In this document: one piece after another, positions 5,560 to 63,880 of the stretch
Position numbering within the stretch: the first letter of the stretch is position 1
Layout of the letters: each line of letters starts with the position of its first letter
Notes under the pieces: generated by a model
What the model was told of the DNA's origin: nothing
The model's database searches: none
The model's input: only the letters and a program-made list of their open reading frames with translations
Program-made: the position numbers and the translations under genes
NCBI GenBank assembly: GCA_024102915.1
Contig: JAGFJG010000016.1
Coordinates: forward strand, 22,263 to 86,262
DNA length: 64,000 nt
Source of the DNA: Caldilineales bacterium
Lineage (GTDB): Bacteria; Chloroflexota; Anaerolineae; J102
Reading direction: 5' to 3'

Positions 5560-5564
5560 CCCGG

Positions 5565-21693: not shown

Positions 21694-21720
21694 GATAGTT
21701 TCTCCATATTGGGCAATGGT

Positions 21721-22540: not shown

Positions 22541-22642
22541 AGAAATATCTCCTTATGTTTGTAGGTGGGATGGTGGGATGGTTGGTTAGTTGGTTGGGAG
22601 GTCACCCAATCGATCATCTATCCAACGAACCAACTTCCAATC

Positions 22643-38129: not shown

Positions 38130-38534
38130 TCAGCTTGGGTCGGCGTCAGTAGCTCTCCGCCGAGGATTGAGTTGCGCCATGCGGCTTGAGAAAATCGAGG
38201 CAAGAATGGCCATCAACAAAGTCAGGATGTTTGAAATGGGCGGGGCGGGAGTGGTCACGATGTAAAGCAAGCCCACGCCCAGGGCAATCAGCACGCCATT
38301 GAGCAAGTGGCCGGAGGGCAGGCTGCGGGTGGCTACGAACGCGCCCCAGGCGCAGGCCAGAGCGACCATAATGTTGCTGACGAATGAATAGCGAGGAAGC
38401 GCCTGCACGTCCTGGATGGTTTGGGCGGGACTGATGGCGATAAGCACAGCGACGAGCAAACCCATGCCCAGCACGGCCAGGATGACCCCAACCAGTATGC
38501 CCATGAGCACGCGCGACCAGCGGATGCCTTTCAT
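38130..38534 (-). CDS. Hypothetical four-helix membrane protein
   Basis: 134-aa hydrophobic ORF that overlaps the upstream TPR gene stop by 4 nt. I recognise no family. Confidence 0.5.
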   Translation of the reverse strand: MKGIRWSRVLMGILVGVILAVLGMGLLVAVLIAISPAQTIQDVQALPRYSFVSNIMVALACAWGAFVATRSLPSGHLLNGVLIALGVGLLYIVTTPAPPISNILTLLMAILASIFSSRMAQLNPRRRATDADPS

Positions 38535-48176: not shown

Positions 48177-49541
48177 CTAGTTGTTGGGCGCACCGGCGGC
48201 AATCCACAATCGAACACGTTCCAGTTGTTCAGGCGTAAGACGGGTGGGATGCGCTTCGACGGGCATAGACTGTACAAGCAACAGGCGGCTGTGATCAGGA
48301 TCGCCGGGAATAATGACAGGCCCGGAAGCTCCGCCCTGCATCAGGCTGCGATAGCTGATCAGGTTGAGTGAACTGCTGGTACCGTGGCAGGCGACGCACT
48401 TGGCATTGATGATGGGACGGATCGAGGATGCAAAACTGGGAATGTCCAACGCCTCGACAGTGGGGAGTTCGCCATTGTTCGTTTCGAGCAATACATGACA
48501 ACTCAGGCAGGTCTCATTCCCCAAAGCCAACTCGTCATGGAAAGGCGTAAAGGGTTGGATGGCGCCCAGGCCGTGACAGGAAAGACAGTCCTCGCGTCCT
48601 TCGCTGATGGCATGGGGAATTGGCGGCGCTGCTGACCGCCGAGCCGTCATTGCCTGCTCTGGATCAGGCGTGGGCGTGGGCGTCGGCGTCGCTCGCACGA
48701 ATGCCTCGCCTTGCTCCGGCAGAGGCGGCACGGTGGCAATGGCAGTCTGCTCGTAAGTGATGAAAAAGTAAAGGACGACGACGAAAATCAGGGTCGAGAC
48801 AAAAGCGAAGGGCAGATAAATGCGTTCACGGCGGCGGATCACCTCTCGCGGCGGCTCCGGTCGGACATCCCCGGCCTCGATTCGTTCCAGCTCGCGGCCA
48901 TGTTCGTGCTCCATTTGCTCGCGCGTGAGCTTGCCGGTGAAGATGCTGCGATTGAAGGTCTTGAGATGGACGTTGTACATATGCCAGACCACAATCGCCA
49001 GAAAAGCCAGGAGGGCTTCGCCGCCATGGGCGGCCTTCGCCGCCGGAATCCAACTGCCTGGGAAAAACCGGGTGATTGAGATCGGGTTCCAGAGCATGAA
49101 CCCAGTCAACACCATCACCCCTGTGCCCCAGACCACCGCCCAGTACTCCAGCTTTTCCTCAAAGCTATAGCGATCGTACTTGGGGCGATTACGGGCCAAC
49201 CCCAGATTGTAACGGATGGCATCGATGAAATCGATCACGTCCTGGAACGAAGGCAGCATAGCGGGCGAGACGCGGCGGACATAGAGCTTGTATCCCACAG
49301 CTAGAATGTGATAGGCGCTTTCGATGATCATGATGATGGCGGCGAGGCGATGGATGATCCGCACAGTCTCGACCCCGCCCATCCAATTGATCATCGTCAT
49401 CGCCCAGGGCGCGGGCGCGTATTTCTGGGGGATGCCGGTGATGACCAGAACCGTAAACGAAACCAACAGCAGCAGGTGTTCCACCCGATCCATGCGGGCG
49501 AAACGCACATAATACTCCTTCACTTTAGAATTGGCGCTCAT
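48177..49541 (-). CDS. FdnI/HydC-like b-type cytochrome membrane subunit fused to a C-terminal trihaem c domain
   Basis: N-terminal RFARMDRVEHLLLLVSFTVLVITG plus 4-5 helices with conserved His (IIH, AHGGE..WHMY), as in formate-dehydrogenase-gamma / Ni-Fe hydrogenase cytochrome b. The tail has CLSCH, CLSCH and CVACHG...GGASGPVIIPGDPDHSRLL, which resembles the Planctomycete-type cytochrome c domain. Confidence 0.75.
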   Translation of the reverse strand: MSANSKVKEYYVRFARMDRVEHLLLLVSFTVLVITGIPQKYAPAPWAMTMINWMGGVETVRIIHRLAAIIMIIESAYHILAVGYKLYVRRVSPAMLPSFQDVIDFIDAIRYNLGLARNRPKYDRYSFEEKLEYWAVVWGTGVMVLTGFMLWNPISITRFFPGSWIPAAKAAHGGEALLAFLAIVVWHMYNVHLKTFNRSIFTGKLTREQMEHEHGRELERIEAGDVRPEPPREVIRRRERIYLPFAFVSTLIFVVVLYFFITYEQTAIATVPPLPEQGEAFVRATPTPTPTPDPEQAMTARRSAAPPIPHAISEGREDCLSCHGLGAIQPFTPFHDELALGNETCLSCHVLLETNNGELPTVEALDIPSFASSIRPIINAKCVACHGTSSSLNLISYRSLMQGGASGPVIIPGDPDHSRLLLVQSMPVEAHPTRLTPEQLERVRLWIAAGAPNN

Positions 49542-50668
49542 GCTCCCTCCCCTCCGTGTCCCTGGTCATGTCCCCGACCAAAGATGCGGCCCACGATGCG
49601 CCGGATGGCATCGAGTGAGACGAATGCGATCATGAAACCGATCGTGCCGGGAATGATCAGCAGATAGAACAGGTTGATGTAGTAGACCAGGGGGTTGTGT
49701 TCTTTGTCCGGGATATAGTGGCTGGTCCAGGAGGTGGGGAAGTTGGCGTCGGCATCGGGATGGCAGCGCTGGCATGTCACCAGCAGATTCTCTTTGACGA
49801 CCAAGGCATTCGGATCATCGATCGCCTTGATATTGTGGATGCCATGACAGTCATAACAGACTGCCTTGTTGGTTAGCTGATCGGGTGACTGCCGCTCGAA
49901 TAGCGTGACCGTCGTGCCGTGGAAATCAGCCACATAGGTATTGAACACATCGGTCGAAATCCCATACTTCGACATCAATGCTTCATCGGCATGGCATTCG
50001 CCGCACAACTCCGGCGATTTGATGCGGAATTCGGCTGTGCGCGGGTCTTCCATGCTGTGCACCCCATGACAATCCACGCAAGTGGGCACATCCGGATTGC
50101 TCTCATCGAACAAAGCGGCGCCATGAACGCTTTCTTTATAATTATCGAAGATCGTGGCGTGGCACTGGCTGCAAGTGGCCGAAACCTGCTGGCGAGGTTC
50201 GTGGGGATTGCTTATATCATGGCTGCCATGACAATCGGTGCAAATGGCCGCATCGCGGTTGCCGCCCGCCAGCAACTTGGCATGCATCGAGTCCAGGGTG
50301 GCGTCGTATTGCTCGGAATGGCAGTTACGACAGGCCTCATAACGGTCGATCTGGAAGTCGCGGCGGCTGTTCGCATTGAGCGGCGGATGCGGATAACCGG
50401 AGATATTTGTATGGCAGGCGGTGCAGGTCAGGTGCTCTTGCCCGTGAACCGAATCACTGAAAACTTCGGCATCGACATAGAGCGACATCACCTCGCCATT
50501 CGCCAGTTCGATCTCGCGGTCGGGAATGCCATGACAGGCAAGACATGTATTGTTGGGATCGCCGCTCTGGGCTGGCGGGGCGGCTTGCGTTGTTGGAATT
50601 CCGGCAAGAAAAAGGAGCGCCAGGGCCAGGGTGAGGGCCGCGATGGGCAGGCGGGAAAGGAAGGGCAT
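49538..50668 (-). CDS. Nonahaem c-type cytochrome with signal peptide and C-terminal membrane anchor
   Basis: Nine CxxCH motifs (CLACH, CTACH, CRNCH, CTDCH, CSQCH, CVDCH, CGECH, CYDCH, CQRCH). Signal peptide ...AGIPTTQA. C-terminal helix LFYLLIIPGTIGFMIAFVSL. The stop overlaps the cytochrome b start by 4 nt. Confidence 0.85.
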   Translation of the reverse strand: MPFLSRLPIAALTLALALLFLAGIPTTQAAPPAQSGDPNNTCLACHGIPDREIELANGEVMSLYVDAEVFSDSVHGQEHLTCTACHTNISGYPHPPLNANSRRDFQIDRYEACRNCHSEQYDATLDSMHAKLLAGGNRDAAICTDCHGSHDISNPHEPRQQVSATCSQCHATIFDNYKESVHGAALFDESNPDVPTCVDCHGVHSMEDPRTAEFRIKSPELCGECHADEALMSKYGISTDVFNTYVADFHGTTVTLFERQSPDQLTNKAVCYDCHGIHNIKAIDDPNALVVKENLLVTCQRCHPDADANFPTSWTSHYIPDKEHNPLVYYINLFYLLIIPGTIGFMIAFVSLDAIRRIVGRIFGRGHDQGHGGEGA

Positions 50669-50765: not shown

Positions 50766-53700
50766 TTACTGTGGCCGGTAATACTTGATGCCGGCGCTGG
50801 GGTGGCAGGTGTTGCAGCGGTTGGTGTAACCCGTCTTCGTAACCTGACCGAAGGCGCCGGTGGCGTCCTGACCATGGGTGATGCCTATGTCGGCATAGGT
50901 CATGGCCGGATAATTGACGCCGTCAGCCGTCGATTTGACGCCGTGCGGATCGTGGCAGGTGACGCAGCTTGGCTTCGATTCTTTCGTGCCGTCGCCGTCG
51001 CTATCCCAGGCCAGTTGGTTCATGTCGAGATGATCCCAATGGATGTTGGCAGGCACATTACCGAAGTAAAAGCCCTGCGCCGACTCGTTTCGGAAACTCG
51101 TGATGACGGGATCGACCTGAAGAGGATATCCGGCAGGCGGCGGATTGGAATGCGTAAACAACGCGTTGCTGTATCCTGGCCCCATCCCCACCTGGTTGGG
51201 TTCCAGATGGCAGGTGTAGCACAGTGCGTAATTCGACTTCTGATAGGATTCAGAATCGGTGATTGGCACGTTCAGCCCGCCGAAATTAAGCCAGAGAGCC
51301 TGCTGGTAATTATCAGCAGCGGCCTTATAAGTTTGGGCTACGCCATCGAAATGGATGCTGTTCTGCCCCTTCTGATGGCAGGTTATGCAGGCGAAACCCT
51401 TACTGCCGTGGCCGGTGACGGCGAAGCCGTAAGTCGAACCATCGCCTACCACGTTGGGAGCGGGAACGCCCTTGACCATGGCCGGAGCGTTATCGTGGCA
51501 GCCTTCGCAGCTTAAAGCGCCGCCGCTCGACCACTTGCTCTTCGCCTCGGCCACGCCATTCACAGCGCCGCCAGCGCTATGGCAATCATTACAGACGGCA
51601 GTGCTCGACAACGTCTTGCCGTCGGCAAAATTGACCTTGCCGTTGACGTGATCTTCGCTGGGGTAGTTGCTGTGGCAGGTATTGCAAGACTGAATACCGG
51701 GGCCCTGGTTGGAGCTGTCGAAGTGGCGGGCGTGCGCGCCGCTGGTCAAATCCTGCGCATTGACGCCGTGACAGGTTCCGCATGTGCCGCTGGCCGCATT
51801 GCCCCAGAGCGGGGTGCTGAACTTCGGCGTGCCGGGTTGTTCCCGGCTGGCCGCGCCGTCGGAATGGCACAGGCTGTTGGCGCAGGTCAGATCATTCGAT
51901 CGGAAGGCCGAATTATCGATGCGCCCGAAAACGTCCTTGACATTCATCGCCACCTGTTTCTGGAAGTCAACATGATTGTCGATATTCGCCACGGCATCGT
52001 TATTGTTGTTCTGCGCCGTCACGCTATGGCATTCGAAACACCCGATGGAATCATCGCCCCGGTCTTTGTAGTTGGGCGTCAGGTGTTTTCCATGGCTGCC
52101 TGTGGTGAGATTGGTCTGATCATTATGGCATCCGGCACAGGTCAATGTTGCGCCTTCCGCCCAAACCGGATTCTTGTACACCAGTTGACCAGTGCTGGGT
52201 GCGCCGTTGCTGTGGCAACCCACCGTAGCACAGGTGCGCGACGTGCGATCATAGCTGCCGCCGGGATTCAGCGAATCGAAGAATACATCCTGGAACGAAG
52301 GCGGCGAGGTGATGTGACCGCTGTAACCGGGGGCGGCATCATTGTGGCAGGCGCTGCATTCCAGCCCATATTGGCCGGGATCATCACCCGCATGGATGAG
52401 ATGAGGAGTCAGATTTTCGTTGAGGGGATAATCATTGCGGCTGGCCGGCGGCGGCGGCGTGCCATGACAGGCGTCGCATCCGCCCACAGGCATAAACGCA
52501 TCCGCCGTTCCCGGAACGCCATCCGTTTCGTGCCTGTGGCAAGAGGTGCAGTCGGCGCCCTCGAAGTGGGGGTTCTCATTCCAATTGCTGGGATTGCGGT
52601 TGTGCGCAGTCGTGGTATGGCAGGTGGCGCAGAGATCGTTGGCGTTGTTGTCGCCCGGCGGATCAAAGCTGAACTCACCGGTCCGGGCCAGGAAAGCCAC
52701 CGGATTGTTGCGAATCTGAGGGCGAATGGCGCTCAGATTGCTGCTGCCATGCGCGTTGTGGCAATTGACGCATGTCTCCACAAAGGGGTCTTGTGTGGCG
52801 GCGTCGAAAGCCTGATTGCCGTGGGCGCTGACATCCATGCCCGCGCGGCTGGAGTCGGCATGACAGCGAGCGCACAATTCGTTTGGCGGAGCCAGCAGTC
52901 GAGGGTTGGACGCATCCGTAAAGTGGGGGGCGTCAGGATTGTGGCAGCTCTGGCAATCAACGCCAGACGCTGCGCCATGTCCATTGACCGCCCAGAACTG
53001 ATCGACCGCCGGTGCGGTCTTGCCGTGCAACACGCCGGGTTTGATGCTGTTATGGCAACCTGTGCAATCCTCGATCTCGCGGTTCGCTCGCCACGCCGAC
53101 TTGGCTTCCAATACGCCCTGCGGCGTGCCGTGGCAGTCATTGCAAACGGCAGTCTGATTCAAGTCCTTGTTGTCCGCCATGTTGACCCAGCCGTTGTAAT
53201 GGCCCTTGTCGGTCCAGTTCTTGACTTTGGGATGACAGGCGGTGCAATTATCCAGGCCAATGTCGGCCTGTTCGTGGCGGCTGTGGGCGCTATTCCCCGG
53301 CGGCGTACCATGACAAGCGCGGCAACTCTGCGGGTTGACGTAGAATCCATCCGTATGCGGATGACACCTGGTGCAATCCTGATCTTCGTAATGGGTCTTA
53401 TTGGCCGATGTGCTGTGATAATTGGTCGTCGTATGACAGGTCTCACAGATAGCCCATGATCCGCCGTCAAAGCGACGGCCATCAAATCGCACCTCTTTGC
53501 CAAAGATCGCCTTCTGGATAAGGGCGGCGTTGTCGGTTTTGGCGTGCGGTTCATGGCACGTTGCGCACTCATTCTGCTTATGCGTCAGAGCCGTGGGATG
53601 GCAGGAGTAGCAGGCGGTTTCCGGGTCGGTCACCAACACATGCGGCTGATGACAGGTCATGCAACTGCTGGTCGATGCACTGTAATTGCCATGCGGATTG

Positions 53701-53837
53701 AACGGAGCCCCTTGCAGCGCGGTGACGCGCCACAAATTACTGCTGCCGGCGTTCAACAATAGCAACAGCACAACGGTGAGGATCAGCAAAGGTGCGAACC
53801 TCAGTAGCTTGCTCACGAATCTAGGCATCGACTTCAT
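50766..53837 (-). CDS. Giant multihaem c-type cytochrome (28 haem motifs, 1023 aa), N-terminal membrane/signal anchor
   Basis: I count 26 CxxCH motifs plus 2 Cx4CH motifs (CATVGCH, CANSLCH). Each Cx4CH is followed by a CxxCH, as in the Geobacter CxxxxCH...CxxCH repeat family. Hydrophobic N-terminus LLRFAPLLILTVVLLLLL. Confidence 0.85.
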   Translation of the reverse strand: MKSMPRFVSKLLRFAPLLILTVVLLLLLNAGSSNLWRVTALQGAPFNPHGNYSASTSSCMTCHQPHVLVTDPETACYSCHPTALTHKQNECATCHEPHAKTDNAALIQKAIFGKEVRFDGRRFDGGSWAICETCHTTTNYHSTSANKTHYEDQDCTRCHPHTDGFYVNPQSCRACHGTPPGNSAHSRHEQADIGLDNCTACHPKVKNWTDKGHYNGWVNMADNKDLNQTAVCNDCHGTPQGVLEAKSAWRANREIEDCTGCHNSIKPGVLHGKTAPAVDQFWAVNGHGAASGVDCQSCHNPDAPHFTDASNPRLLAPPNELCARCHADSSRAGMDVSAHGNQAFDAATQDPFVETCVNCHNAHGSSNLSAIRPQIRNNPVAFLARTGEFSFDPPGDNNANDLCATCHTTTAHNRNPSNWNENPHFEGADCTSCHRHETDGVPGTADAFMPVGGCDACHGTPPPPASRNDYPLNENLTPHLIHAGDDPGQYGLECSACHNDAAPGYSGHITSPPSFQDVFFDSLNPGGSYDRTSRTCATVGCHSNGAPSTGQLVYKNPVWAEGATLTCAGCHNDQTNLTTGSHGKHLTPNYKDRGDDSIGCFECHSVTAQNNNNDAVANIDNHVDFQKQVAMNVKDVFGRIDNSAFRSNDLTCANSLCHSDGAASREQPGTPKFSTPLWGNAASGTCGTCHGVNAQDLTSGAHARHFDSSNQGPGIQSCNTCHSNYPSEDHVNGKVNFADGKTLSSTAVCNDCHSAGGAVNGVAEAKSKWSSGGALSCEGCHDNAPAMVKGVPAPNVVGDGSTYGFAVTGHGSKGFACITCHQKGQNSIHFDGVAQTYKAAADNYQQALWLNFGGLNVPITDSESYQKSNYALCYTCHLEPNQVGMGPGYSNALFTHSNPPPAGYPLQVDPVITSFRNESAQGFYFGNVPANIHWDHLDMNQLAWDSDGDGTKESKPSCVTCHDPHGVKSTADGVNYPAMTYADIGITHGQDATGAFGQVTKTGYTNRCNTCHPSAGIKYYRPQ

Positions 53838-53843
53838 CGTGGG

Positions 53844-55604
53844 CTATCTCCGTGCGGTGGGTGGGGAGGAGGGAGCCTGGAATGAGTGGCACTCGATACA
53901 GAGGGCGTCGCCCGCTGCTCTCAGGTCAAAGTCATGCTGCGTGCCGTGCGGGCTGTGGCAGCTTACACAGGACAGTCCCTCTCCGATGACGGGATGGAAA
54001 CCGTGCGGCAAACCGCTATGGCAGGATTCGCAGAGGGCGTTGGTGCGATTTTTCAGCAGGCCATCGATGTTGCCGCTATGGGCGTTGTGGCAGGCGGCGC
54101 ATTGCTCGCGCAATTGGGTGGAATGTTTGCTGTTGGCGAATGTGGCGGCCTGGCCGCTATGGCATTCGCCGCACAACTGCCGCGCCGAAGTCTGCAACAA
54201 ATCCGGGTGACTGCTGCTGTGCGATACATGGCAGGATGTACAATCCCCGGAAGCGACCGGCTGATGTTTGATAGCGCCCTGTTGCAAGTCATGGCAGTCG
54301 GTGCAGATATTGCTTGCCACCGCCGCCAGGGTCGTTCTGCTCTTGCCGTGGAATTCGGTGTGGCACTGTGCGCAATCGCCCGCGGCCACCGGTTCGTGCG
54401 TGCTGCCGGATGAAGCCAGCACGATATCGCTATGACATTCGACGCAGGTCTCGGCCAACTGCGTTCCCGAAGTTTTCGGCTCGTGCGGCGAATGGCAGGA
54501 GGTGCAGGATGGCAGTTTGTCGGCGGAATGATTGGCGAACGTATGCTGCGTGTCGAACTGCTCGGTGTGGCAGGTCTTGCAGATCGCATCCTCCGACTGC
54601 ACCAGGAGGTTGGCGTTGTTGCTGCCATGCCCATCGTGGCAAAGCAGACATTCACCCACGGCCAGGCTGGGATGCGGTTGGCTCACCATCTGCCCGTGAT
54701 CTTGATGGCATTCGTTACAAGATGCCGCCTGGGTCTCGGCCAGCAAGGGTGCATCCGGCCCCTGGTGGAATCCGCCATGACAATCAGAGCACTTGCCTTC
54801 GGCAAATGGCTGGTGCGGATGACTGAAGCTGTCCGGCTCCGGCAGATCGGTATGGCATTGTTCGCAGGCTTCCCGGTCCAGCGTCATCTCTGAGGGTGGA
54901 TGGGGGTCGTGCGGATCATGGCATAGGCTGCACTGGATGTTTTCATCCTGGGCATGGCTGGCGAAGCTAATGGACGGATCCGTCTGATCGGTATGGCAGG
55001 TTCCGCACAATTTCTGCTGAGGCTGGCGCAGGATAGCGGCATTGTCGGAACCATGCGACACATGGCAAAGATTACACTCGCCCGCGGCCAGGTCGGGATG
55101 CGGTTGATCGATCTCGCCACCCAAATCCTTGTGACACTCATTGCAAGCGTCATTGACATTCGTGACCATGAGCGCGGGATAGGCGCTGGCGTGGGGATTA
55201 TGGCAGGAGGTGCAATCCCCGCGGGCGAATGGCTGGTGCGGGTGACTGACCGGCGATTCGGGATCGGGCAAATCCTGCCAGTGACAATCCCGGCAAACAG
55301 CATCCTGCGTCCCCCACAACTGTTTTGGATCCGACCCGCTGAGATCATGGCACGCGCCACAGGCCCCATCCCCAAACGGCGGATGCACGTAATCCAGGCT
55401 ATCCAAAGGCGCTGGACCCAAACCCGCCGCGATCGCATCAGCTGGCGGCGTGGGCGTGAAAAAGGGCGTCGGCGTGGGTGTGGGCGTCCCTTCCGGCCCG
55501 GAATCGCGACGACAGCTATTGAGGACGAGGATCGCCAGGATTAATAGCGCTGTCAGAGCTGCAATAGGAAGAAGGCGGCGCCAGCGCTGCGAGTGCAATG
55601 TCAT
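53844..55604 (-). CDS. 22-haem c-type cytochrome, probable lipoprotein with Pro/Thr linker (polymer of c7/c3-like modules)
   Basis: 22 CxxCH motifs. N-terminal LLILAILVLNSC is a lipobox-like Cys, followed by GTPTPTPTPFFTPTPP. The unit HP(H/D)xP(F/L)AxGxCxxCHxxH...CxxCH recurs about 7-8 times. Confidence 0.85.
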   Translation of the reverse strand: MTLHSQRWRRLLPIAALTALLILAILVLNSCRRDSGPEGTPTPTPTPFFTPTPPADAIAAGLGPAPLDSLDYVHPPFGDGACGACHDLSGSDPKQLWGTQDAVCRDCHWQDLPDPESPVSHPHQPFARGDCTSCHNPHASAYPALMVTNVNDACNECHKDLGGEIDQPHPDLAAGECNLCHVSHGSDNAAILRQPQQKLCGTCHTDQTDPSISFASHAQDENIQCSLCHDPHDPHPPSEMTLDREACEQCHTDLPEPDSFSHPHQPFAEGKCSDCHGGFHQGPDAPLLAETQAASCNECHQDHGQMVSQPHPSLAVGECLLCHDGHGSNNANLLVQSEDAICKTCHTEQFDTQHTFANHSADKLPSCTSCHSPHEPKTSGTQLAETCVECHSDIVLASSGSTHEPVAAGDCAQCHTEFHGKSRTTLAAVASNICTDCHDLQQGAIKHQPVASGDCTSCHVSHSSSHPDLLQTSARQLCGECHSGQAATFANSKHSTQLREQCAACHNAHSGNIDGLLKNRTNALCESCHSGLPHGFHPVIGEGLSCVSCHSPHGTQHDFDLRAAGDALCIECHSFQAPSSPPTARR

Positions 55605-55948
55605 GCTTTACAAAGAATCCAGGGAATGATTAGGGCATTATAACGCAGAATGAGAAATGTGAATATGATATTAATCAGGTTCCTAGTGCGCAAATTGTGA
55701 CACATGGATCGGACAGACCCTTCATCATGGAGGATAATCTGCCGCGCGTGCATCCGAATATGCCTTGTTGCATCAAGAAATAGTCCATCGAAGTCGAAAC
55801 AAGTGCAAAAATTACCTCCAATTATGACAAAGATCATGTCGCAACTTAGAAACGAGTGCTATTCTATTTTAACGTGTCAGTTCAGGCTGACAGTCGGGAA
55901 TAGTTTATAAGGCCAAACTTGCCACTATCTTGAACGGAGGCGACTCAC
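55605..55948. promoter_or_regulatory. AT-rich divergent control region between the two cytochrome operons
   Basis: A 344-bp non-coding, visibly AT-rich spacer between the divergent starts at 55604 (-) and 55949 (+). It contains the palindrome TGTGACACA (~55696-55704) and the hairpin TGTCAG-ttcagg-CTGACA (~55875-55892). Confidence 0.4.
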
Positions 55949-56416
55949 GTGAAAGACCCAGTTCAGATTTTCAACAACGAGCAGAAAACCGATCGTCGTG
56001 GATTCCTGAAGCTTTTGTTGGGTTTTTCCGGGCTGGTCACAGCCGTTGGCGTTCTCACGCCCGTGATCGGCTATTTGTGGCCGCCTAAGCAGGCGTCGAC
56101 AGTAGGCGCTGGCCGGGTGCCGGTAGGATCGACCGAAGAATTTCCTGTGGGGCAGGGCAAGGTTGTGCCGGTGGATGGCAAACCAGTGATAATTGTAAAC
56201 ACAGATCAAGGCGGATTAACCGCCTACTCAGCCGTCTGCACGCATTTGGGCTGCGTTGTGGAATGGGACGATAGAAGGCAATTCATTCTTTGCCCCTGCC
56301 ATGATGGACGATTCAACGCCATCAATGGCGCTGTAATCTCTGGCCCGCCACCCACGCCTCTGCCTGAATTGCCCCTCGTCGTGGAGCAGGATACCGTTTA
56401 CGTCTCACCCGCCTAA
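55949..56416 (+). CDS. Rieske [2Fe-2S] subunit with twin-arginine signal
   Basis: GTG start with GGAGG 8 nt upstream. Tat motif DRRGFLKLLLG. Cluster boxes CTHLGC and CPCHDGRF. Confidence 0.9.
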   Translation: MKDPVQIFNNEQKTDRRGFLKLLLGFSGLVTAVGVLTPVIGYLWPPKQASTVGAGRVPVGSTEEFPVGQGKVVPVDGKPVIIVNTDQGGLTAYSAVCTHLGCVVEWDDRRQFILCPCHDGRFNAINGAVISGPPPTPLPELPLVVEQDTVYVSPA

Positions 56417-56445
56417 ATCTCATCGATCAATTCGCAGGAGGCGAC

Positions 56446-57507
56446 ATGGAGGCTAAGAAATCGAGCTTTAACCGGATGTGGGATTGGGTGGATACACGTT
56501 ACCGTGCCAATGAACTGATCCAGGCGCTGCTTCACGTCGAGATCCCGCGCTCGGCCAAAACTTTCTATTTCGGCGGGATCACACTCTTCTTTTTCATCGT
56601 CCAAGCCGCAACCGGCATCCTGCTGTCTATTTACTATCAGCCATCGCCCGATTCAGCTTTTAACAGCATTCTTTTCATTATGAATAACGTGCGCTTCGGC
56701 TGGCTGATCCGCAGCATTCACGCCTGGAGCGCCAATCTCATGGTGCTGTTCTGCGTACTGCATCTGCTGCGCATTTTCTTCCAGGCAGCTTATAAGAAGC
56801 CCAGAGAGATGACGTGGGTATTTGGCGTAGTCCTGTTGGGCGTAACCCTGGTGTTCGGTTTCACAGGCTATCTCTTGCCCTGGGACCAACGGGCTTACTG
56901 GGCGACAGTGGTAGGAAGCGAGATCGCCGGGGCGTTGCCCATCGTGGGCGGGCAACTGCTCACCTTCCTGCGCGGCGGCGCTGACATCACCGCAGCAACC
57001 CTGACCCGATTTTTCGGCATCCATGTACTCATACTCCCGGTTACTCTGGCGCTGGTGCTGGTCATCCATATCACGATGGTGCACCAACAGGGCCTTGCTG
57101 ACCCCAAACGTGAAAAAGTGGATGACCAGTCGCGCAAAAAGAGGCTCCTGCCTTTCTTCCCGAATTATGTACTCGATGAAATGATCGCCTGGTATCTGAT
57201 GCTGGCCGGATTAATCGTACTGGCATCCGTTTTCCCCGGCGGATTGGAGGAACCGGCCGACCCCCTGCGTACGCCCGAACACACAAAACCGGAATGGTAT
57301 TTTCTTTTCCTCTACCAGGCCTTGAAAGTAGTGCCTCGCATCATCGGCGTCACTTTGCCCATCATCGGCGGCATTCTCTTGTTATTACTGCCATTCATCG
57401 ATCGCAGCCCCTATGTCGAACTCAGGAAACGTCCTGTGGCTCTGGCGGTGGGCGTTATCTGCGTGGCTGGCATTGTCGGATTCACGATATGGGGCTGGCT
57501 AAGCTAG
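56446..57507 (+). CDS. Cytochrome b, fused b6 plus subunit-IV type
   Basis: AGGAGG RBS. Haem ligands are spaced H-x13-H (IHAWSANLMVLFCVLH) and H-x14-H (IHVLILPVTLALVLVIH), which is the b6 pattern. The PEWY motif (KPEWYFLFLYQ) sits in the subunit-IV-like C-terminal part. Confidence 0.9.
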   Translation: MEAKKSSFNRMWDWVDTRYRANELIQALLHVEIPRSAKTFYFGGITLFFFIVQAATGILLSIYYQPSPDSAFNSILFIMNNVRFGWLIRSIHAWSANLMVLFCVLHLLRIFFQAAYKKPREMTWVFGVVLLGVTLVFGFTGYLLPWDQRAYWATVVGSEIAGALPIVGGQLLTFLRGGADITAATLTRFFGIHVLILPVTLALVLVIHITMVHQQGLADPKREKVDDQSRKKRLLPFFPNYVLDEMIAWYLMLAGLIVLASVFPGGLEEPADPLRTPEHTKPEWYFLFLYQALKVVPRIIGVTLPIIGGILLLLLPFIDRSPYVELRKRPVALAVGVICVAGIVGFTIWGWLS

Positions 57508-57523
57508 CACAGGGAGCAATGTC

Positions 57524-59476
57524 ATGAACCATCGGCTTCGCACTCGCCTGCTTATCCTATCGGTGCTGCTGATTGCCGCCGGTATCGCATCGACCCTGAC
57601 GCTGGCGCAAGGCACGCCCCCAACGATCCCGCATCCGCTCAAGAATTACCGCGGCTGCCTGGTTTGCCACGGCACGGGATTGGCCAGCGCGCCCCAGGTC
57701 CCCGACAGCCATGATGGCTTCGAAAATGAAATCTGCACTTCGTGTCACCTGACCGGCGAAGAGGCGGCCGAGCAAAGCGGCGCTGCGGCTGCGGGCCCAG
57801 GCCCAGAGCAGATTCCGCATCCCATTGAGGGGCGCGAGAACTGTGTGCAGTGCCATCAACCTGCCGAGGGCGGTGAAATCATCCCCGCCGCCGCGGGTGC
57901 GCCTGCGATACCACACACTTTGGAAGGTCACGATAAATGCCTGGCCTGCCATCAGGAAGGCGTGGGCGGCGCACCTCAAATGCCTGACGACCACGCCGGG
58001 CGCACAGAAGAGATTTGTCAGGCCTGTCATCAGCCTGGTGGCACGATGACAGTTGGTGGAAGCGGTGAAGGCGGAGCGCCCAACATCCCTCACACACTGG
58101 TGGGGCGAGATGATTGTTTGGGTTGCCACGAACAGGGGTTCGGCGGCGCACCCCAAATCCCTGACGACCATGCCGGGCGCAGCAATGACATCTGCCAGGC
58201 CTGTCACCAATCCACCGAAGCAGCGCCTGAGGCAGCGGAACCGATCGCCAGCGGCCCCATCCCCACGCCCATTCCCCACCCGCCGGTACAGGACACGGAT
58301 TCCTGCGTAGCCTGCCACGAGGCATTGGAAGGAGCGCAGGGGCAGGTGACCGCCGATTGGGCGATGAGCATCCATGCCGAGCGTGATGTCTCTTGCGCGG
58401 ATTGCCACGGCGGCGACCCCACTGCCTCTACCGTCAATGAATCAATGGACCCGGCAGCGGGTTATATCGGCGCTCCTGATAAAGCTGACATTCCAGCACT
58501 GTGCGCCAGTTGTCACGCCGACGTGAATTTAATGCGCCAATATGATCTGCCCACCGACCAGTGGGCCAAGTATCAGGAAAGCATCCACGGCATCCAGCTT
58601 GCCCGCGGCGATGAGAAGGTCACGACCTGTTACGATTGCCACGGCGGGCATAAAATCCTCAAGGCCAATGACCCGGCTTCCACGGTTTATGCCAGTAATG
58701 TGCCAGCATTGTGCGCCGGATGCCATTCTGATCAGGAATTGATGCGGCCTTATGGCATCCCCACCGACCAGTATGACCTCTACCGTGAAAGTGTGCACGG
58801 CATCGCTCTGCTCGATCATCAGGATTTCCGGGCGCCCAATTGCGCCACCTGTCATGGCACCCACGGGGCTGCGCCTCCGGGTTTCAATGAGGTGAGCAAT
58901 GTCTGCGGAAGCTGCCATTCCGCCACGCAAGAACATTATCTGCAAAGCGCCCACGCCAATGTCGAGGGCGGCCCTGAATGCGTGACCTGCCATGGCCGCT
59001 ATGATGTGGGCGTGCCCGACGACTCGATGTATCTGGGTTCAGAGCCGCGACACTGTGGTTCGTGTCATCCCGAAGACAGCCCGGAAGGCCAGATCGTTCA
59101 ATCAATCTATGACAATATCACGCAAGCGGACGCAGCTTACGAGGAAGCAGAAAACCGGGTGGAAGGGGTGAAACGCCTGGGCATGCTTGTATTGGACGAG
59201 GAGGGCCGCTTGCAGGAATCGAATACAAAACTGATCACGGCGCGGGCTTTGCAGCATACCACCGACCTGGCAACGGTGAAGGAAAAGACCGACGAAGCGG
59301 CAAGCCTGGCGAATGAGGCCAAACAAGGCGCTGACTCCGCCGCCGCTGAAAACCTGTTCCGGCGGCAAGCGATGGTGGTCGCCGTCATCGCCATCGCCTT
59401 CGCCATCGGCGCTCTCTATCTATTGAAGCGAGAGCTAGATCGGCGGTTGGAACGCGAGGATGCCCAGGAGCAGTAA
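57524..59476 (+). CDS. 16-haem c-type cytochrome with signal peptide, coiled-coil and C-terminal membrane anchor (c subunit of the Rieske/cyt b complex by position)
   Basis: 16 CxxCH motifs. The N-terminal half holds about five IPHx(5-7)CxxCH modules, three of them in near-identical dihaem units (...IPHTL(E/V)G(H/R)D(K/D)CL(A/G)CH(Q/E)(E/Q)G(V/F)GGAPQ(M/I)PDDHAGR...ICQACHQ). C-terminal helix AMVVAVIAIAFAIGALYLL. Confidence 0.85.
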   Translation: MNHRLRTRLLILSVLLIAAGIASTLTLAQGTPPTIPHPLKNYRGCLVCHGTGLASAPQVPDSHDGFENEICTSCHLTGEEAAEQSGAAAAGPGPEQIPHPIEGRENCVQCHQPAEGGEIIPAAAGAPAIPHTLEGHDKCLACHQEGVGGAPQMPDDHAGRTEEICQACHQPGGTMTVGGSGEGGAPNIPHTLVGRDDCLGCHEQGFGGAPQIPDDHAGRSNDICQACHQSTEAAPEAAEPIASGPIPTPIPHPPVQDTDSCVACHEALEGAQGQVTADWAMSIHAERDVSCADCHGGDPTASTVNESMDPAAGYIGAPDKADIPALCASCHADVNLMRQYDLPTDQWAKYQESIHGIQLARGDEKVTTCYDCHGGHKILKANDPASTVYASNVPALCAGCHSDQELMRPYGIPTDQYDLYRESVHGIALLDHQDFRAPNCATCHGTHGAAPPGFNEVSNVCGSCHSATQEHYLQSAHANVEGGPECVTCHGRYDVGVPDDSMYLGSEPRHCGSCHPEDSPEGQIVQSIYDNITQADAAYEEAENRVEGVKRLGMLVLDEEGRLQESNTKLITARALQHTTDLATVKEKTDEAASLANEAKQGADSAAAENLFRRQAMVVAVIAIAFAIGALYLLKRELDRRLEREDAQEQ

Positions 59477-59530
59477 GATTGGATCATCGAAAGATTGCAC
59501 TCCCACATCGCTTCATAGGACAGGAGAAAA

Positions 59531-60343
59531 GTGAGAGTCAAAAATAAAATCATCGTGGTTACGGGCGGCGGGAATGGCATGGGGCGCGAGCTTGTCTTGA
59601 ACTTGCTTGTCAGAGGCGCCAGCGTAGCAGCCGTCGACATCAGTGAAGCTGCACTGCAGGAAACAATCGAACTGGCAGGCGACAAAAGGGGCAGCCTTTC
59701 AACCTATGTGGTAGACATCACCAACAGAGATGCGGTGGCGTCGCTCCCCGAACAGGTCATTGCCAGGCATGGAGCCGTAGATGGCCTCATCAACAATGCC
59801 GGGATCATCCAACCCTTCGTTCGTGTCAACGATCTGGATTATGCCGCCATCGAGCAGGTGATGAATGTCAATTTCTATGGAACTCTTTACATGACCAAAA
59901 CATTCTTACCCCACCTTCTAAAGAGACCCGAAGCGCATATTTCAAACACATCCAGCATGGGCGGATACCTGCCTGTCCCCGGACAGACGATCTACGGAGC
60001 CACGAAAGCGGCCATCAAGTTATTCACCGAGGGATTGCACTCCGAACTCCTGAATACCAACGTCAAAGTCACCGTCGTATTTCCCGGCGCTATTGGCACC
60101 AATATTGCCGCCAATTCGGGCGTCGGGGACTCGCTAAATGTTTCCAGTGAAGACAGCCAGAGGTCGTTTCGGCCATTGGCCGCCAGTAAAGCGGCGCAAA
60201 TCATCCTCGATGGCATCGAGAAAGATCGGTACAGCATTTTCGTGGGGCGGGACGCACGATTCATGGACTTATTGGTCAGGATCAGCCCAAAACGAGCCGC
60301 GAATTATATTTTCAAGCAGATGCAATCGCTCTTGCCAGCCTAA
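59531..60343 (+). CDS. Short-chain dehydrogenase/reductase (SDR)
   Basis: GTG start with AGGAGA upstream. TGGGNGMG cofactor motif, NNAG, and the catalytic Y-x3-K (YGATKAA). Confidence 0.85.
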   Translation: MRVKNKIIVVTGGGNGMGRELVLNLLVRGASVAAVDISEAALQETIELAGDKRGSLSTYVVDITNRDAVASLPEQVIARHGAVDGLINNAGIIQPFVRVNDLDYAAIEQVMNVNFYGTLYMTKTFLPHLLKRPEAHISNTSSMGGYLPVPGQTIYGATKAAIKLFTEGLHSELLNTNVKVTVVFPGAIGTNIAANSGVGDSLNVSSEDSQRSFRPLAASKAAQIILDGIEKDRYSIFVGRDARFMDLLVRISPKRAANYIFKQMQSLLPA

Positions 60344-60420
60344 CATGATGGTGATTTTAGAGGTTCGTCTTTCCTGATTATAGCGATTGAATATCAGGTT
60401 TTCCTGGTCGCAACAAAATC

Positions 60421-60460
60421 GCATAAACAACAATCGGGCGCTCCAGGTGGAGCGCCCGAT
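60421..60460 (-). terminator. Strong hairpin terminator after the decahaem gene (between convergent genes)
   Basis: Perfect 12-bp stem ATCGGGCGCTCC (60433-60444) / GGAGCGCCCGAT (60449-60460) with loop AGGT. On the minus strand, TTGTTGTTTATGCGATTTTG follows. Confidence 0.65.
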
Positions 60461-60492
60461 CGTACGGTGTAGACAGGGGTGATGGATGTGTT

Positions 60493-62694
60493 TTACTGGG
60501 GTCGGGTCTTGCCAGTGGTCAATCCATCGGCGTAGTCGGACATCTCCAGATCTTCGAGATTGTCGAAGAGAGCCTGACCGACGTACTTGTTGTTGTGAGC
60601 GAAAGCGCCTGGATCCTTCAGGAAGTACTGGTAATTGTAGGCTGCGCGCAGCAGGCGAGGCGTCCAGGTGCTATAGCGAGCGCCCGAACCATTGAACCAG
60701 TAAGGATAGCGGCTGCCATCGTAGACGATGTCGTCGGAAACCGGGTTGGCGGTGGCGTAGGTCTGCATGCCCGCGTAGAGTGCTGCTGCAAGTCCTTCCA
60801 ATTCGCCATTGACGCCTTCAGCGGTGTTGCCATCGCCATCGTAGTCAGGTGTGGTGGCCCAACGGATGTTCTTGAGATCATCGGGGCTGCCGAGCGGGCC
60901 GTGGCAGGCGGTGCAAGCCTGGTACTCGACCTCAAGTTCGTGCACATTGTGGCAGTCTTCGCAGGTTGCAAACATACTGCCGCCGAACGGATGCTTGTTC
61001 TGGCCGACGTAGGTCTTGCCTTCGAACTCGTAGATGCCGTTGGTGACATTGCCGAAGAGCGTAGCGCCCGCAGCGAAGTAGTGGACGTTGATGAAGCCCT
61101 GACCAGTGTCAAGATCATCATCACCGACACCGGCTGTGGCATCGTCGATCTGGCCGCCATAGGCGCGACCCTGGTGGCACTGGATACACAGGTTATTGTC
61201 CTTGTCGCCGCCCTTCTCCAGACTGACATCAGCGCCGTTCGGGAAGGTCACTTCATCGAACACCCAGCGGTCCGGCCAGGATTCGCCGTTATGACAGGTG
61301 GTGCACATCATGCCGTTGGCGGCTTCCTGGGTGATGCTGACGCCTTCTTTGACCAGGAAGGGAATGCCGTCGGCGCTATGGCATTTGCTGCAGCTTCCGG
61401 GCACTTCGTAGTCATCCCCGTCCCAATGCCGCCATGCTTCCTCGGAACCGGCGAAGTGGCCGGGGTCGATGCGATGGGCATTGCTCATGTCCACCTTATT
61501 GGTGATGGCCTCATTCAGATCGCCGATCGAATCATGCAGCAATTGGATGACGTACTTGCCATTGTGGGCGAACTTGCCGGGGTCCTTCTGACCAACCTGA
61601 TAGTTAAATGTCGCTTTCATCAGGCGAGCAGTATAGGCATTGTAGTTTACGGCGGGATCATCCTTTACGTTATCGCAGTTTGCATCGACGAACCAATAGG
61701 GATGGCTACTCGAATCGTAAACGATGCATTTCTGAGACACTTCCTCTGCATAATCCTGAATTGCTCCGTAAAGAAGCGCCTGTAAACCTGCGATCTCTTC
61801 GCCCACGCCTTCCTCGTCATTACCATCGCCGTCATAATCGGCCAGCGAGCCCATCATGCGCACCATATCGAAATCATCTGCTGATTCGACATCGGCGTGG
61901 CATTCCTGGCACTCCGTGAGCTTCAGTTCCAGCGTGTGCATGTCATGGCACTCGTAACACTGATCGTATTGTTCGACATGGCGGAAGTTGATATCGTAGC
62001 TCATGCCTTCATATTCATAGCCGCCATGCACCAGTGCGCCGTATTGCGTCGCCGCCGCAGCGAAGTAATGTATATTCTGGAAGGAAGCGGTTGGCTCGAC
62101 TGCGTCCACATCAGCAGTCATGCCCTTCCCTTCCAGATAGGTGTCAACCTGCGGTCCAGACGAACGTCCTTGATGGCATTCCATACAGCGGGATTCATCG
62201 CCCAGGTTCTCGATAGTAACGCCAGAGGGGAATTTGACGCTTGTCTTGTGCAGGGTGACGTCGTTGTGGCAGGCCACACATTCGACTGTAGACCCCACAG
62301 GAGGCGCTACTTCAACAGAGCCAGCGGCGCTGCCATCCGCGCCCAAGAAGTCCAGGTAGCCTGGCGTGCTGTGGCACTTGGCGCAGCTCGTTTGAACGAC
62401 GCCGGCATCATCCCAGTGCCGGAAAGCTTCAGCGTCATGGTCATTGTGCGGAGAATTCGCCCAACGATCCAGGAACGGCACTTCTACGGCCACACCCGTG
62501 CACGGTGATAACTGGTAGGGCATGAATAGTTTGACCGGCAGTTCTCCGCCTTGCAACGCCGGCCCTATCAGCGATGCTTGCGGACAAACTGGGTTGAGGT
62601 CAGGCGCAGCCGCTTGCGCAGAACCGCCGCTCACCACGAGCAGCAGGGCCAATGCAAGCGCCAAAGCGCCCAAAATCGTGTATCTTCCTTTCAT
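60493..62694 (-). CDS. Secreted decahaem c-type cytochrome built from two tandem pentahaem halves
   Basis: Start ATG 62694 (MKGRYTILGALALALALLLVVSGGSAQA) with AGGAGG upstream. There are 10 CxxCH motifs, 5 + 5. Both halves share WRHWD, SC(A/S)KCHS, CxxCHQGR, N(I/V)HYFAA, DYDGDGN, PYWF and KDPGxFAHNxKYV. Confidence 0.85.
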   Translation of the reverse strand: MKGRYTILGALALALALLLVVSGGSAQAAAPDLNPVCPQASLIGPALQGGELPVKLFMPYQLSPCTGVAVEVPFLDRWANSPHNDHDAEAFRHWDDAGVVQTSCAKCHSTPGYLDFLGADGSAAGSVEVAPPVGSTVECVACHNDVTLHKTSVKFPSGVTIENLGDESRCMECHQGRSSGPQVDTYLEGKGMTADVDAVEPTASFQNIHYFAAAATQYGALVHGGYEYEGMSYDINFRHVEQYDQCYECHDMHTLELKLTECQECHADVESADDFDMVRMMGSLADYDGDGNDEEGVGEEIAGLQALLYGAIQDYAEEVSQKCIVYDSSSHPYWFVDANCDNVKDDPAVNYNAYTARLMKATFNYQVGQKDPGKFAHNGKYVIQLLHDSIGDLNEAITNKVDMSNAHRIDPGHFAGSEEAWRHWDGDDYEVPGSCSKCHSADGIPFLVKEGVSITQEAANGMMCTTCHNGESWPDRWVFDEVTFPNGADVSLEKGGDKDNNLCIQCHQGRAYGGQIDDATAGVGDDDLDTGQGFINVHYFAAGATLFGNVTNGIYEFEGKTYVGQNKHPFGGSMFATCEDCHNVHELEVEYQACTACHGPLGSPDDLKNIRWATTPDYDGDGNTAEGVNGELEGLAAALYAGMQTYATANPVSDDIVYDGSRYPYWFNGSGARYSTWTPRLLRAAYNYQYFLKDPGAFAHNNKYVGQALFDNLEDLEMSDYADGLTTGKTRPQ

Positions 62695-63274
62695 TGCTAT
62701 TCCTCCTCTAAGTGAAAAAAGCAATGCAGCGATGGGGTGGATGCGGGGTGATTACCAATTGTGCAGCAGATGCAGCAAATACATCTTAGTGCACATCTCG
62801 TACTCCCCTTGTACAAATGTATACTAACATGATAGCAAGATTAATGGAAATCCGATATGATCTATGTCAGGTTAATCAAAAATAAATTTGGGTTCGTGGG
62901 ATGAGAGGACGACGATCGGGGGGCCGCAGGTCGGGAAACAGGGTGATGCCGAGTCGGGCAGGGTAGCGATGAACATTTAGCGAAAAATCACGCAATAGTC
63001 CGACAAAAAAGTGAATTCGTTCACCAAAACTGATCTAAGTCATATTCAAACCGCATTTGCAGCGCGAAAATAGAAGCGCTTGAAGTGTCGCAATCTCGCA
63101 TGGACGCTTTCTTCGCACGACCTTCTGGCATACCAACACCGGCCGGGCTGCGCCACAACGCTGGGGCTAACATCGCATCAGCCTAGCTGGATCATCATGG
63201 AGATGGATTGACGATCACCGGCTTCGGTCAGAGATTGGCAATCTGTCATTGCCGTGTTCAAAGGAGCAAACGTT

Positions 63275-63880
63275 ATGGTCGCACAAGGCAGTGCATCAAG
63301 GGCGTCGCCTCCCATCTTCATTGATGAGGTGATCGCCAGGACGCCGGGGGGTAACCCCCATCTGGAGTCATGCGTGCAATGCGGCACCTGCGGCGGTTCC
63401 TGTCCCTCCGGCCCGGACATGGAGCACACGCCGCGCCAACTCTTCGCCATGATCGAGGCGGGGATGAAGGAGGAAGTACTGCGCAGCAACACGCCCTGGT
63501 ATTGCGTATCCTGCTATTACTGCATGGTGCGCTGTCCCCAGGACGTGCACATCACCGACCTCATGTACACGCTCAAGCGCATGGCCATCCGCGAGGGGCT
63601 GTACCATGAGTCCACCGCCGCGGATGCACCCGACTTCTCCGAAACCTTTATCGATTTCGTGGAGAACTATGGGCGCAGCTTCGAGTTGGGGCTGGCCACC
63701 CGCTACCATCTCAAACACCATCCCTTGGGCGCAGTGAAAATGGCCGGGTTCGGATTGAGCATGTTACGGCGGGGGCGCATGGATATCACGCCCAAACGCA
63801 TCGAGGGGATCGGCCAACTCAAAGCGATTCTCAGCAAAGCCAAAGAACTAAGCGCAGCCGCCGACGGAGGCAGACTATGA
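63275..63880 (+). CDS. HdrC-like 4Fe-4S dicluster protein (heterodisulfide reductase subunit C family)
   Basis: ATG 63275 with AAGGAG 7 nt upstream. Cluster motifs CVQCGTCGGSCP and CVSCYYCMVRCP. Directly followed by an HdrB-like gene. Confidence 0.75.
   Translation: MVAQGSASRASPPIFIDEVIARTPGGNPHLESCVQCGTCGGSCPSGPDMEHTPRQLFAMIEAGMKEEVLRSNTPWYCVSCYYCMVRCPQDVHITDLMYTLKRMAIREGLYHESTAADAPDFSETFIDFVENYGRSFELGLATRYHLKHHPLGAVKMAGFGLSMLRRGRMDITPKRIEGIGQLKAILSKAKELSAAADGGRL

Follow-up and report, generated by a model that had tools for sequence, protein, structure and literature searches.

Among the quinol oxidases that conserve energy, Rieske/cytochrome b complexes are the principal ones in living organisms; where their electrons end up is set by the c-type subunit. 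Here we analyse a 64,000-nucleotide stretch of a Caldilineales genome (Chloroflexota, Anaerolineae; contig JAGFJG010000016.1; hereafter the window, on which all positions are counted), in which a compact cluster of three genes encodes a Rieske protein, a b6-type cytochrome b and, in third place, a 650-residue membrane-anchored cytochrome with 16 haem motifs. From open reading frame (ORF) calling, Pfam and NCBIfam profiles, and motif and Kyte-Doolittle (KD) hydropathy scans, the best explanation is that these genes form one operon for a Rieske/cytochrome b complex with a multihaem c subunit. The conserved unit of this subunit, as read from its alignment, is a nine-haem core with a helical stalk and a transmembrane (TM) anchor, and the total of 16 would reflect added di-haem repeats. 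In fact, the cassette is common rather than odd, and the 16 haems are a lineage-specific extension of a nine-haem subunit.

We propose that the complex is most likely a menaquinol:multihaem-cytochrome c oxidoreductase. Taken as a whole, it seems probable to us that a b6-like menaquinol oxidase feeds, through its multihaem c subunit, the 22- and 28-haem cytochromes encoded next to it, and through them an extracellular or surface acceptor.

The Rieske and cytochrome b genes

The three ORFs lie on the + strand at 55949-56416, 56446-57507 and 57524-59476 and encode 155, 353 and 650 residues. They are separated by gaps of 29 and 16 nt, and a GGAGG-like ribosome-binding site precedes each of the three start codons. 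This is exactly the tight spacing that an earlier note on the same DNA had reported, and the three-gene unit that it recognised (Rieske, b6-type cytochrome b, multihaem cytochrome) is borne out by domains, motifs and adjacency. A scan of 55400-60600 for promoters and terminators returned signals no better than those of shuffled sequence. These include one weak sigma-70-like site per strand in the AT-richer region of 344 bp (55605-55948) that the cluster shares with a divergent multihaem-cytochrome operon, and that may act as a promoter region. Thus, operon status rests on spacing and synteny.

The first gene (55949-56416, +) encodes a Rieske 2Fe-2S subunit of 155 residues (Pfam Rieske, E = 9e-14). 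The protein carries the twin-arginine motif RRGFL at residue 16, a single N-terminal TM segment (residues 22-40) and the two cluster-binding boxes, CTHLGC at residue 97 and CPCHDGRF at residue 115, which follow the general CxHxGC and CxCH patterns. The earlier description of a Rieske protein with these boxes, exported by twin-arginine translocation (Tat), is therefore upheld. In box II, Gly and Phe stand where high-potential Rieske proteins hold Ser and Tyr. Under the established hydrogen-bond rule, this replacement predicts a low-potential cluster, which suggests a menaquinol-type protein. Low-potential clusters pair with menaquinol when Rieske potential classes and quinone potentials are compared (PMC4122944). 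The PetC profiles of NCBIfam score the protein at 73-75, under their cut-offs of 154-250.

The second gene (56446-57507, +) encodes a cytochrome b of 353 residues, in which a b6-like four-helix half is fused to a subunit-IV-like three-helix half, as judged from Pfam, from HMMER searches of PDB sequences and from motifs. Pfam places Cytochrome_B at residues 38-216 (E = 3.6e-54) and Cytochrom_B_C at residues 270-350. The closest PDB matches are cyanobacterial and plant b6 for residues 4-220 (217 bits, the cyanobacterial protein being best) and subunit IV for residues 236-341. Every feature claimed earlier for this fused protein could be located: the haem ligand pairs H92-x13-H106 and H193-x14-H208, and the Qo motif PEWY at residue 282. 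The protein has seven TM segments and just two cysteines, at residues 103 and 339.

How does this protein compare with the known types? Like the b6f, Firmicute and Heliobacteria b6-type complexes, the window's complex has a Tat-type Rieske anchor, x13/x14 ligands with the H-x14-H pair on helix D, PEWY in the subunit-IV part, and a seven-helix core of b6 plus subunit IV. Unlike the b6f type, it combines b6 and subunit IV in a single 353-residue ORF instead of separate petB and petD genes, lacks the Cys of the CxGG motif, and has a 16-haem protein in place of cytochrome f or a mono- or di-haem cytochrome c. Some relatives do have a split cytochrome b (L002 and L012 in the survey described below). 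The eight helices, x13/x13 ligands and mono-haem c1 of the bc1 type are not what we see: there are seven helices, the ligands are x13/x14, and no c1 gene was found in the window. Among the NCBIfam profiles, 'cytochrome b6' scores 244.5 (cut-off 325), ExtP 233.6 (cut-off 290) and ExtQ 24.4 (cut-off 150). Since both the 'cytochrome b6' and the ExtP scores fall under their cut-offs, we place the protein in neither family.

The earlier note also held that the Cys that binds haem ci is missing, and this is confirmed. The HMMER alignment sets 'KTFY-FGG' (thus YFGG) against 'NIFYCLGG' of b6, with a gap opposite the Cys, and the Cys is absent from every relative examined. In fact, none of the related cytochromes b with a readable motif has it, whether fused or split (L002, L012), and the sequence at this place is [YF][FLYWM]GG. 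Because the CxGG Cys is absent, haem ci is not expected, and the quinone-reduction (Qi) site should resemble that of bc1 more than that of b6f. Loss of CxGG and of haem cn is argued to have recurred in several lineages and to have favoured the fusion of b6 with subunit IV (Dibrova et al. 2017, PMC5600118); a cytochrome b that is fused and devoid of CxGG, as this one is, fits the trend.

The multihaem cytochrome: core, extension and anchor

The third gene (57524-59476, +) encodes a protein with exactly 16 CxxCH motifs and neither CxxCK nor CxxxCH. Its gene position and its single C-terminal TM segment (residues 616-634) agree with the earlier view of an anchored 650-residue cytochrome in the slot of cytochrome f or c1. 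Sixteen haem motifs in 650 residues, kept in more than 100 homologues, are far beyond chance.

The protein begins with a signal peptide (residues 1-30, ending in TLAQG; 57524-57613, +), whose hydrophobic segment at residues 9-27 is kept in homologues and which is presumably cleaved. There follows an N-terminal extension with 7 haems (residues 31-235; 57614-58228, +), delimited by the listing of its repeats, by homologue alignment and by the predicted local distance difference test (pLDDT) score of the structural model. It consists of three di-haem repeats of the form 'IPH..CxxCH..DH..CxxCH' and one single-haem unit. The repeats are joined by linkers rich in Pro and Ala, and in Gly or Thr; repeat number and linker length vary widely among homologues, and the extension is absent from homologues outside Chloroflexota. 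The same di-haem repeat, as one unit 'PPIPH..CLSCH..H..CLSCH', is found in the C-terminal extension (residues ~305-454) of a b-type cytochrome encoded at 48177-49541 (-), an extension that also holds a PSCyt1-type mono-haem domain. The repeat, being common to both proteins, thus behaves as a mobile module in this lineage.

Downstream of the extension lies the conserved nine-haem core (residues 236-519; 58229-59080, +), with CxxCH at residues 261, 291, 327, 369, 397, 440, 461, 486 and 511. A helical hairpin and stalk come next (residues 520-613; 59081-59362, +), with the invariant H578, which probably ligates a haem, and with R613 directly ahead of the TM helix. The C-terminal TM anchor (about residues 614-636) has its KD maximum of 2.7 at residues 616-634 and is followed by a short charged cytoplasmic tail and the stop codon (59363-59476, +). 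All of the 120 top homologues have a C-terminal TM segment.

The signature of the core emerges from 79 aligned sequences that cover at least 12 phyla: nine CxxCH, the histidines H284, H355, H376, H425, H447, H477 and H578, the methionines M337 and M407, and R613. These positions are kept in at least 90% of the sequences, mostly in 97-100%, the exception being the first Cys pair, C261/C264. The nine haems of the core thus face nine candidate sixth ligands (7 His, 2 Met). From this we infer seven bis-His and two His/Met haems and no open catalytic site. The signature and the absence of CxxCK fit electron transfer rather than catalysis.

AlphaFold2 gave a full-length model with a pLDDT of 74, in which the core and the C-terminal helices are confident and residues 83-125, 173-184 and 230-240 fall below 50. 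The core alone, modelled from a 72-sequence alignment, reached a pLDDT of 94.5 and a predicted TM-score (pTM) of 0.85. In this model a compact haem domain is followed by a helical hairpin (residues 520-579), which includes H578, and then by a long helix that is the membrane anchor; the modelled helices span residues 520-551, 557-579 and 582 onwards, with pLDDT >90. The stalk, too, would therefore contribute a probable haem ligand. The earlier note had seen a coiled-coil here. The segment is indeed helical, but it is confidently predicted as a helix-hairpin and a long stalk helix running into the membrane (residues 520-649). The notion of a 16-haem wire as a rigid unit fares less well, since the N-terminal di-haem units sit on variable linkers with pLDDT <50. 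What the model describes, instead, is a nine-haem core that is rigid and to which di-haem modules are tethered.

Could the third protein be an enzyme? The relevant alternative makes it a distant relative of HAO, the octahaem nitrite reductases (ONR) or NrfA, with a five-coordinate haem, acting as a nitrite, hydroxylamine or sulfite reductase that is fed by the Rieske/b pair. Foldseek searches do point in this direction: the best matches of the core model with its C-terminal helices are the Kuenenia and Brocadia HAO, then MccA, ONR and NrfA, and profile searches of the PDB return short stretches of ONR, NrfA and HAO. An HAO-like subunit has a precedent in the anammox complex Kuste4569-4574 (PMC12954380), and the two haems to which we assign Met ligands might be open if that ligation were wrong. 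Yet these matches are weak. The full-length model finds nothing under E = 0.18, and the core model has no match in the PDB under E = 1e-3, its best E being 3e-3 and its best TM-score 0.41. The sequence and profile hits are generic multihaem ones, the stronger being to MtrA, a pure electron carrier. Moreover, the invariant His and Met are as many as the haems, and there is no CxxCK.

Membership of the MtrA, NrfA, ONR or HAO families was not accepted, the PDB sequence and profile matches being generic and short. In fact, the window protein departs from the octahaem enzymes in its nine-haem core, its TM anchor, its place beside Rieske/b genes (in 70 of the 79 loci surveyed below) and its lack of a catalytic-haem signature; with no CxxCK, nine ligand candidates for nine haems (a coordination read from sequence) and no significant fold match, it does not answer to their description. 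We therefore hold an enzymatic role to be highly improbable, and the core counts, from its model, as a remote relation of multihaem folds already known, with no close solved homologue.

Distribution of the cassette

A sequence search returned more than 2,800 matches to the 650-residue protein. The best 120 of these are 34-63% identical to it, mostly 50-63%, and where named they come from Chloroflexota metagenome-assembled genomes (MAGs; Anaerolineae, Caldilineae). They carry 11-35 haem motifs, 14 being the commonest number (74 of the 120), and three homologue contexts picked at random all read Rieske, cytochrome b, multihaem cytochrome. When the C-terminal 415 residues were scanned with HMMER against 1.84 billion cluster representatives, 499 clusters (50% identity) matched at E <= 1e-30, most of them 410-430 residues long. 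Matches from outside Chloroflexota align only to about residues 235-645 and have nine haems each, except L022 with 11. Limnocylindria-type loci have 10 haems; for Anaerolineae, genomes give 11-17 and metagenomes as many as 35. Thus, the number 16 carries no special meaning: haem counts run from 9 to 35, and 16 is reached by repeat expansion ahead of the nine-haem core.

The family alignment was scanned against GTDB genomes, one for each species. Relatives are encoded in at least 346 stretches, of which the best 79 (loci L001 and so on) were kept and examined by tblastn and ORF calling. The Rieske, cytochrome b and multihaem cytochrome genes are adjacent in 70 of the 79, in the order of the window in 64 and in the order cytochrome b, multihaem cytochrome, Rieske in six. 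This adjacency speaks indirectly for a putative dimeric membrane complex of the three subunits. Four loci show cytochrome b and multihaem cytochrome and then the contig end, and two further ones are ambiguous. Adjacent Rieske/b genes are genuinely lacking only in L019 (Anaerolineales) and L037 (Ardenticatenales). The window protein shows the full family pattern, that is, the nine CxxCH, the ligand set, R613, the TM helix and the neighbouring Rieske and cytochrome b genes. Over 62 loci, the identities of the three proteins to those of the window co-vary (Spearman 0.78-0.86), as joint inheritance of the whole cassette would predict.

A few loci deserve separate mention. In L008, L013, L014, L015, L017 and L018, a split cytochrome b is followed by a 13-haem cytochrome and this by a Rieske protein whose box II reads CPCHDG[FI]F. 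The homologues of L019 and L037 are 17-haem proteins of near full length and 43% identity; a distant Rieske/b pair lies ~5 kb downstream in L037. Ardenticatena maritima, considered as a cultured model, was set aside: at most 7 haems per protein have been reported for it (PMC5808234), and the Ardenticatenales locus L037 is one of the two without adjacent Rieske/b genes.

The loci are labelled Chloroflexota (Anaerolineae, Limnocylindria), Acidobacteriota, Zixibacteria, KSB1, Omnitrophota, Armatimonadota, Gemmatimonadota, Nitrospirota, Ignavibacteria, Calditrichota, Bacteroidota, Bacillota and Proteobacteria; at least 12 phyla are represented. The rarity implied by the earlier note is thus contradicted, the trio being adjacent in 70 of 79 genomes and the core matching ~500 clusters. 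That note had named common occurrence with an assigned function as a point that would count against it; the commonness is real, the assigned function is not. In fact, the cytochrome goes in public annotation either as 'hypothetical' or as 'cytochrome c3 family protein'; the cytochrome b is entered as 'cytochrome bc complex cytochrome b subunit'. Anaerolineae and Limnocylindria abound in sediments, soils and wastewater sludge. A nine-haem anchor found in at least 12 phyla and dominant in these two classes would give the quinone pool a major way out that has gone unstudied, and the repeat expansion would offer a natural experiment in longer haem chains.

The general idea of a multihaem c subunit for a Rieske/b complex is already in the literature. 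PMC5317091 cites Dibrova 2013 for early anaerobic complexes in general with multihaem partners, and PetAB lies inside a multihaem cluster in Zixibacteria (Castelle et al., PMC3903129). In Geobacter, ExtMNOPQS (GSU2930-2935) groups a Rieske/cytochrome b pair with 10- and 12-haem cytochromes and is of uncharacterised function (PMC2825233, PMC5877670). The likeness to the window is that genes for a Rieske protein and a b6-like cytochrome b stand with those for large multihaem cytochromes, in a context of metal respiration. The Ext cluster differs in its split cytochrome b (ExtP and ExtQ), in multihaem genes placed upstream of the Rieske gene, and in an added porin, rhodanese and selenoprotein; with scores under the cut-offs and another gene neighbourhood, the window does not correspond to this 'selenite/tellurite' operon.

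In the anammox bacterium Kuenenia, a TM-anchored hexa- or octa-haem cytochrome replaces cytochrome f (Kustd1480-85, Kuste4569-74; PMC12954380). These complexes, too, join a b6-like cytochrome b and subunit IV with a TM-anchored multihaem cytochrome. Unlike the window's, they have split cytochrome b genes and an additional NAD(P) oxidoreductase subunit, and one of them includes an HAO-like enzyme. Genes for neither of these two proteins lie in the window's operon or its flanks; moreover, planctomycete forms retain CxGG (Dibrova et al., PMC5600118). In the literature searched, which included few subscription journals, we found no description of the nine-haem family, its spread over phyla or its repeat expansion in Anaerolineae, nor of 9-, 14- or 16-haem Rieske partners.

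Proposed electron flow and the cytochrome island

To explain these features together, we envision the following path. Menaquinol would be oxidised at the PEWY Qo site. Its first electron would reduce the Rieske cluster and from there enter the anchored, membrane-proximal nine-haem core, while the second would cross the two b haems to a Qi site without haem ci. Electrons could then spread through the core and move to the tethered N-terminal di-haem modules. The next carriers would be the two extracytoplasmic cytochromes of the divergent operon, with 22 and 28 haems, and beyond these an extracellular or cell-surface acceptor; a Q-cycle would conserve energy along the way.

The surroundings of the operon speak for such a path: it stands back-to-back with genes for the 22- and 28-haem cytochromes and for CbcL-like and ImcH-like modules. 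The first gene of the divergent operon (53844-55604, -) encodes the 22-haem cytochrome, a putative partner with a lipobox-like LNSC and a Pro/Thr linker. Six nucleotides downstream, a 1023-residue cytochrome (50766-53837, -) with 26 CxxCH and 2 CxxxxCH motifs, hence 28 haems, is a probable partner as well. L005, a Chloroflexota MAG, also carries this divergent pair of 28- and 22-haem genes.

Next come two genes that overlap by 4 nt (48177-50668, -) and encode a nine-haem, C-terminally anchored cytochrome of 376 residues, 27% identical to the core of the 650-residue protein, and an FdnI/HydC-type cytochrome b of 454 residues. Together they are a candidate for a split CbcL-like quinol oxidoreductase. 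A NapC/NirT-family cytochrome of 527 residues (46471-48054, -) has one N-terminal TM segment, directly followed by an atypical CGTTCH (CX3CH) motif, and 8 CxxCH. Both the CbcL architecture and the features of ImcH, including a single-TM form from Anaerolinea thermophila, have been described (Zhong and Shi, PMC6295460). Because the NapC/NirT-family protein shows ImcH features, the island would hold three different candidate quinol oxidoreductases.

Two side observations concern these neighbours. The LNSC and Pro/Thr-rich linker of the 22-haem protein suggest a surface-tethered lipoprotein, and the pair of the 376-residue cytochrome and the FdnI/HydC-type protein also adjoins the Rieske/b cassette in L002, L003, L011 and L021.

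Several points weigh against this path. Bis-His haems usually have a lower potential than a Rieske cluster, and outward flow would therefore include uphill steps. The linkers of the extension are predicted to be disordered, hence a continuous wire is not demonstrated. The Bacillota locus L055, which bears a monoderm label, has 9 haems only, which makes the link between extension and envelope type an imperfect one. Many related loci have no multihaem neighbour and unrelated genes instead. Finally, the Chloroflexota 'bc complex', not necessarily the same cassette, has been taken as an ordinary aerobic complex III co-inherited with A-family oxidases (PMC5826079).

The main rival view is that the cassette is a housekeeping complex III, whose multihaem subunit replaces c1 and soluble carriers and serves oxidases or periplasmic nitrite/nitrate reductases rather than extracellular acceptors. 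A di-haem cytochrome cc does replace c1 and soluble carriers in Actinobacteria. The public name 'cytochrome bc complex cytochrome b subunit' agrees with this view, as does the presence of the cassette in many soil and aerobic lineages, for example Limnocylindria and Blastocatellia, often without multihaem neighbours. In L001 a gene for a mono/di-haem Cytochrom_C lies 1 kb downstream. In classes related to Anaerolineae, the phylogenies of bc complexes agree with the trees of A-family haem-copper oxidases (Ward et al., PMC5826079).

However, among 120 same-strand neighbour genes of the loci, no haem-copper oxidase family is found in the 25 most frequent of 56-69 Pfam families. Multihaem cytochromes lead these neighbours (21 of 64 downstream, 18 of 56 upstream), with NapC/NirT and b561 also present. 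The window's operon sits in an island of five further multihaem cytochromes and two other quinol-oxidase-like modules, and if supplying an oxidase were the sole task, lengthening to 14-35 haems would be difficult to account for. For these reasons we judge a housekeeping role as the whole explanation to be rather unlikely, although it and a path to surface cytochromes are not mutually exclusive. Even an ordinary complex III would correct annotation, the partner of the Chloroflexota 'bc complex' now being called 'hypothetical' or 'cytochrome c3 family'.

The direction of flow can also be argued the other way. Uphill operation has been proposed for bc1 in iron oxidisers, and the architecture described here is symmetrical for direction. 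Fe(II), reduced humics, a cathode or a partner cell might serve as extracellular donor and reduce menaquinone through the haem modules and then the Rieske cluster, at the expense of the proton-motive force. Iron oxidation was favoured for the Zixibacteria PetAB and multihaem cluster (PMC3903129), and CbcL/MtoC-type modules occur in reducers and oxidisers alike (PMC6295460). Menaquinone, at about -80 mV, would demand only a small uphill step from neutral-pH Fe(II) (PMC4122944).

The genes of the window argue otherwise. No genes for carbon fixation or lithotrophy were found near the operon, the only candidate being an ambiguous PRK/uridine-kinase family protein at 36941-37642, and the island includes an ImcH-like gene, ImcH being known only from reducers (PMC6295460). 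The rest of the window is filled by ordinary heterotrophic functions: lactate utilisation, electron-transfer flavoprotein (ETF) with acyl-CoA dehydrogenase, fatty-acid synthesis and MoeA. The LutABC-like genes (LUD, 4Fe-4S and CCG domains) lie at 2729-5685 (-), and those for ETF alpha/beta and acyl-CoA dehydrogenase at 20734-23977 (-). These two clusters would provide a heterotrophic donor side for the quinone pool. We therefore regard reverse flow as improbable.

If electrons do leave the menaquinol pool through the nine-haem core towards the cell surface, the cassette invites comparison with the established routes. In a 2018 survey, CymA, CbcL/MtoC and ImcH stood as the sole families known for the step from quinol to the outside (PMC6295460). 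The cassette resembles them in its proposed link between the quinone pool and extracytoplasmic multihaem cytochromes; they are unrelated to it in sequence and mechanism, with no Rieske cluster and no Qo/Qi bifurcation. We tentatively suggest, as a possible but doubtful extension, that the cassette stands beside CymA, CbcL and ImcH as a fourth class of quinol oxidoreductases serving extracellular electron transfer, one that conserves energy because its Q-cycle machine would be wired straight into a nine-haem anchor. In Anaerolineae, tethered di-haem repeats would have lengthened this anchor stepwise from 9 to up to 35 haems, the complex thereby reaching through the envelope to surface cytochromes. 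If such cytochromes are fed, metal or electrode respiration could yield more energy per electron than by the routes of Geobacter and Shewanella.

The remaining neighbours are more ordinary. Between the 16-haem gene and a gene for a 743-residue ten-haem cytochrome that converges on the operon (60493-62724, -) lies a gene for an ordinary short-chain dehydrogenase (SDR; 59531-60343, +), which is not conserved in related loci. A strong 15-bp GC-rich hairpin at 60430-60463 follows the ten-haem gene. A TPR protein with a CcmH/CycH-type domain (38531-39373, -), ~7 kb from the cytochrome island, may aid cytochrome c maturation, and a 4Fe-4S dicluster protein is encoded at the end of the window (63254-63880, +). 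In L001, CCG-domain and FAD/4Fe-4S (Hdr-like) genes at 14816-17761, a few kb downstream of the cassette, may represent a recurring neighbour.

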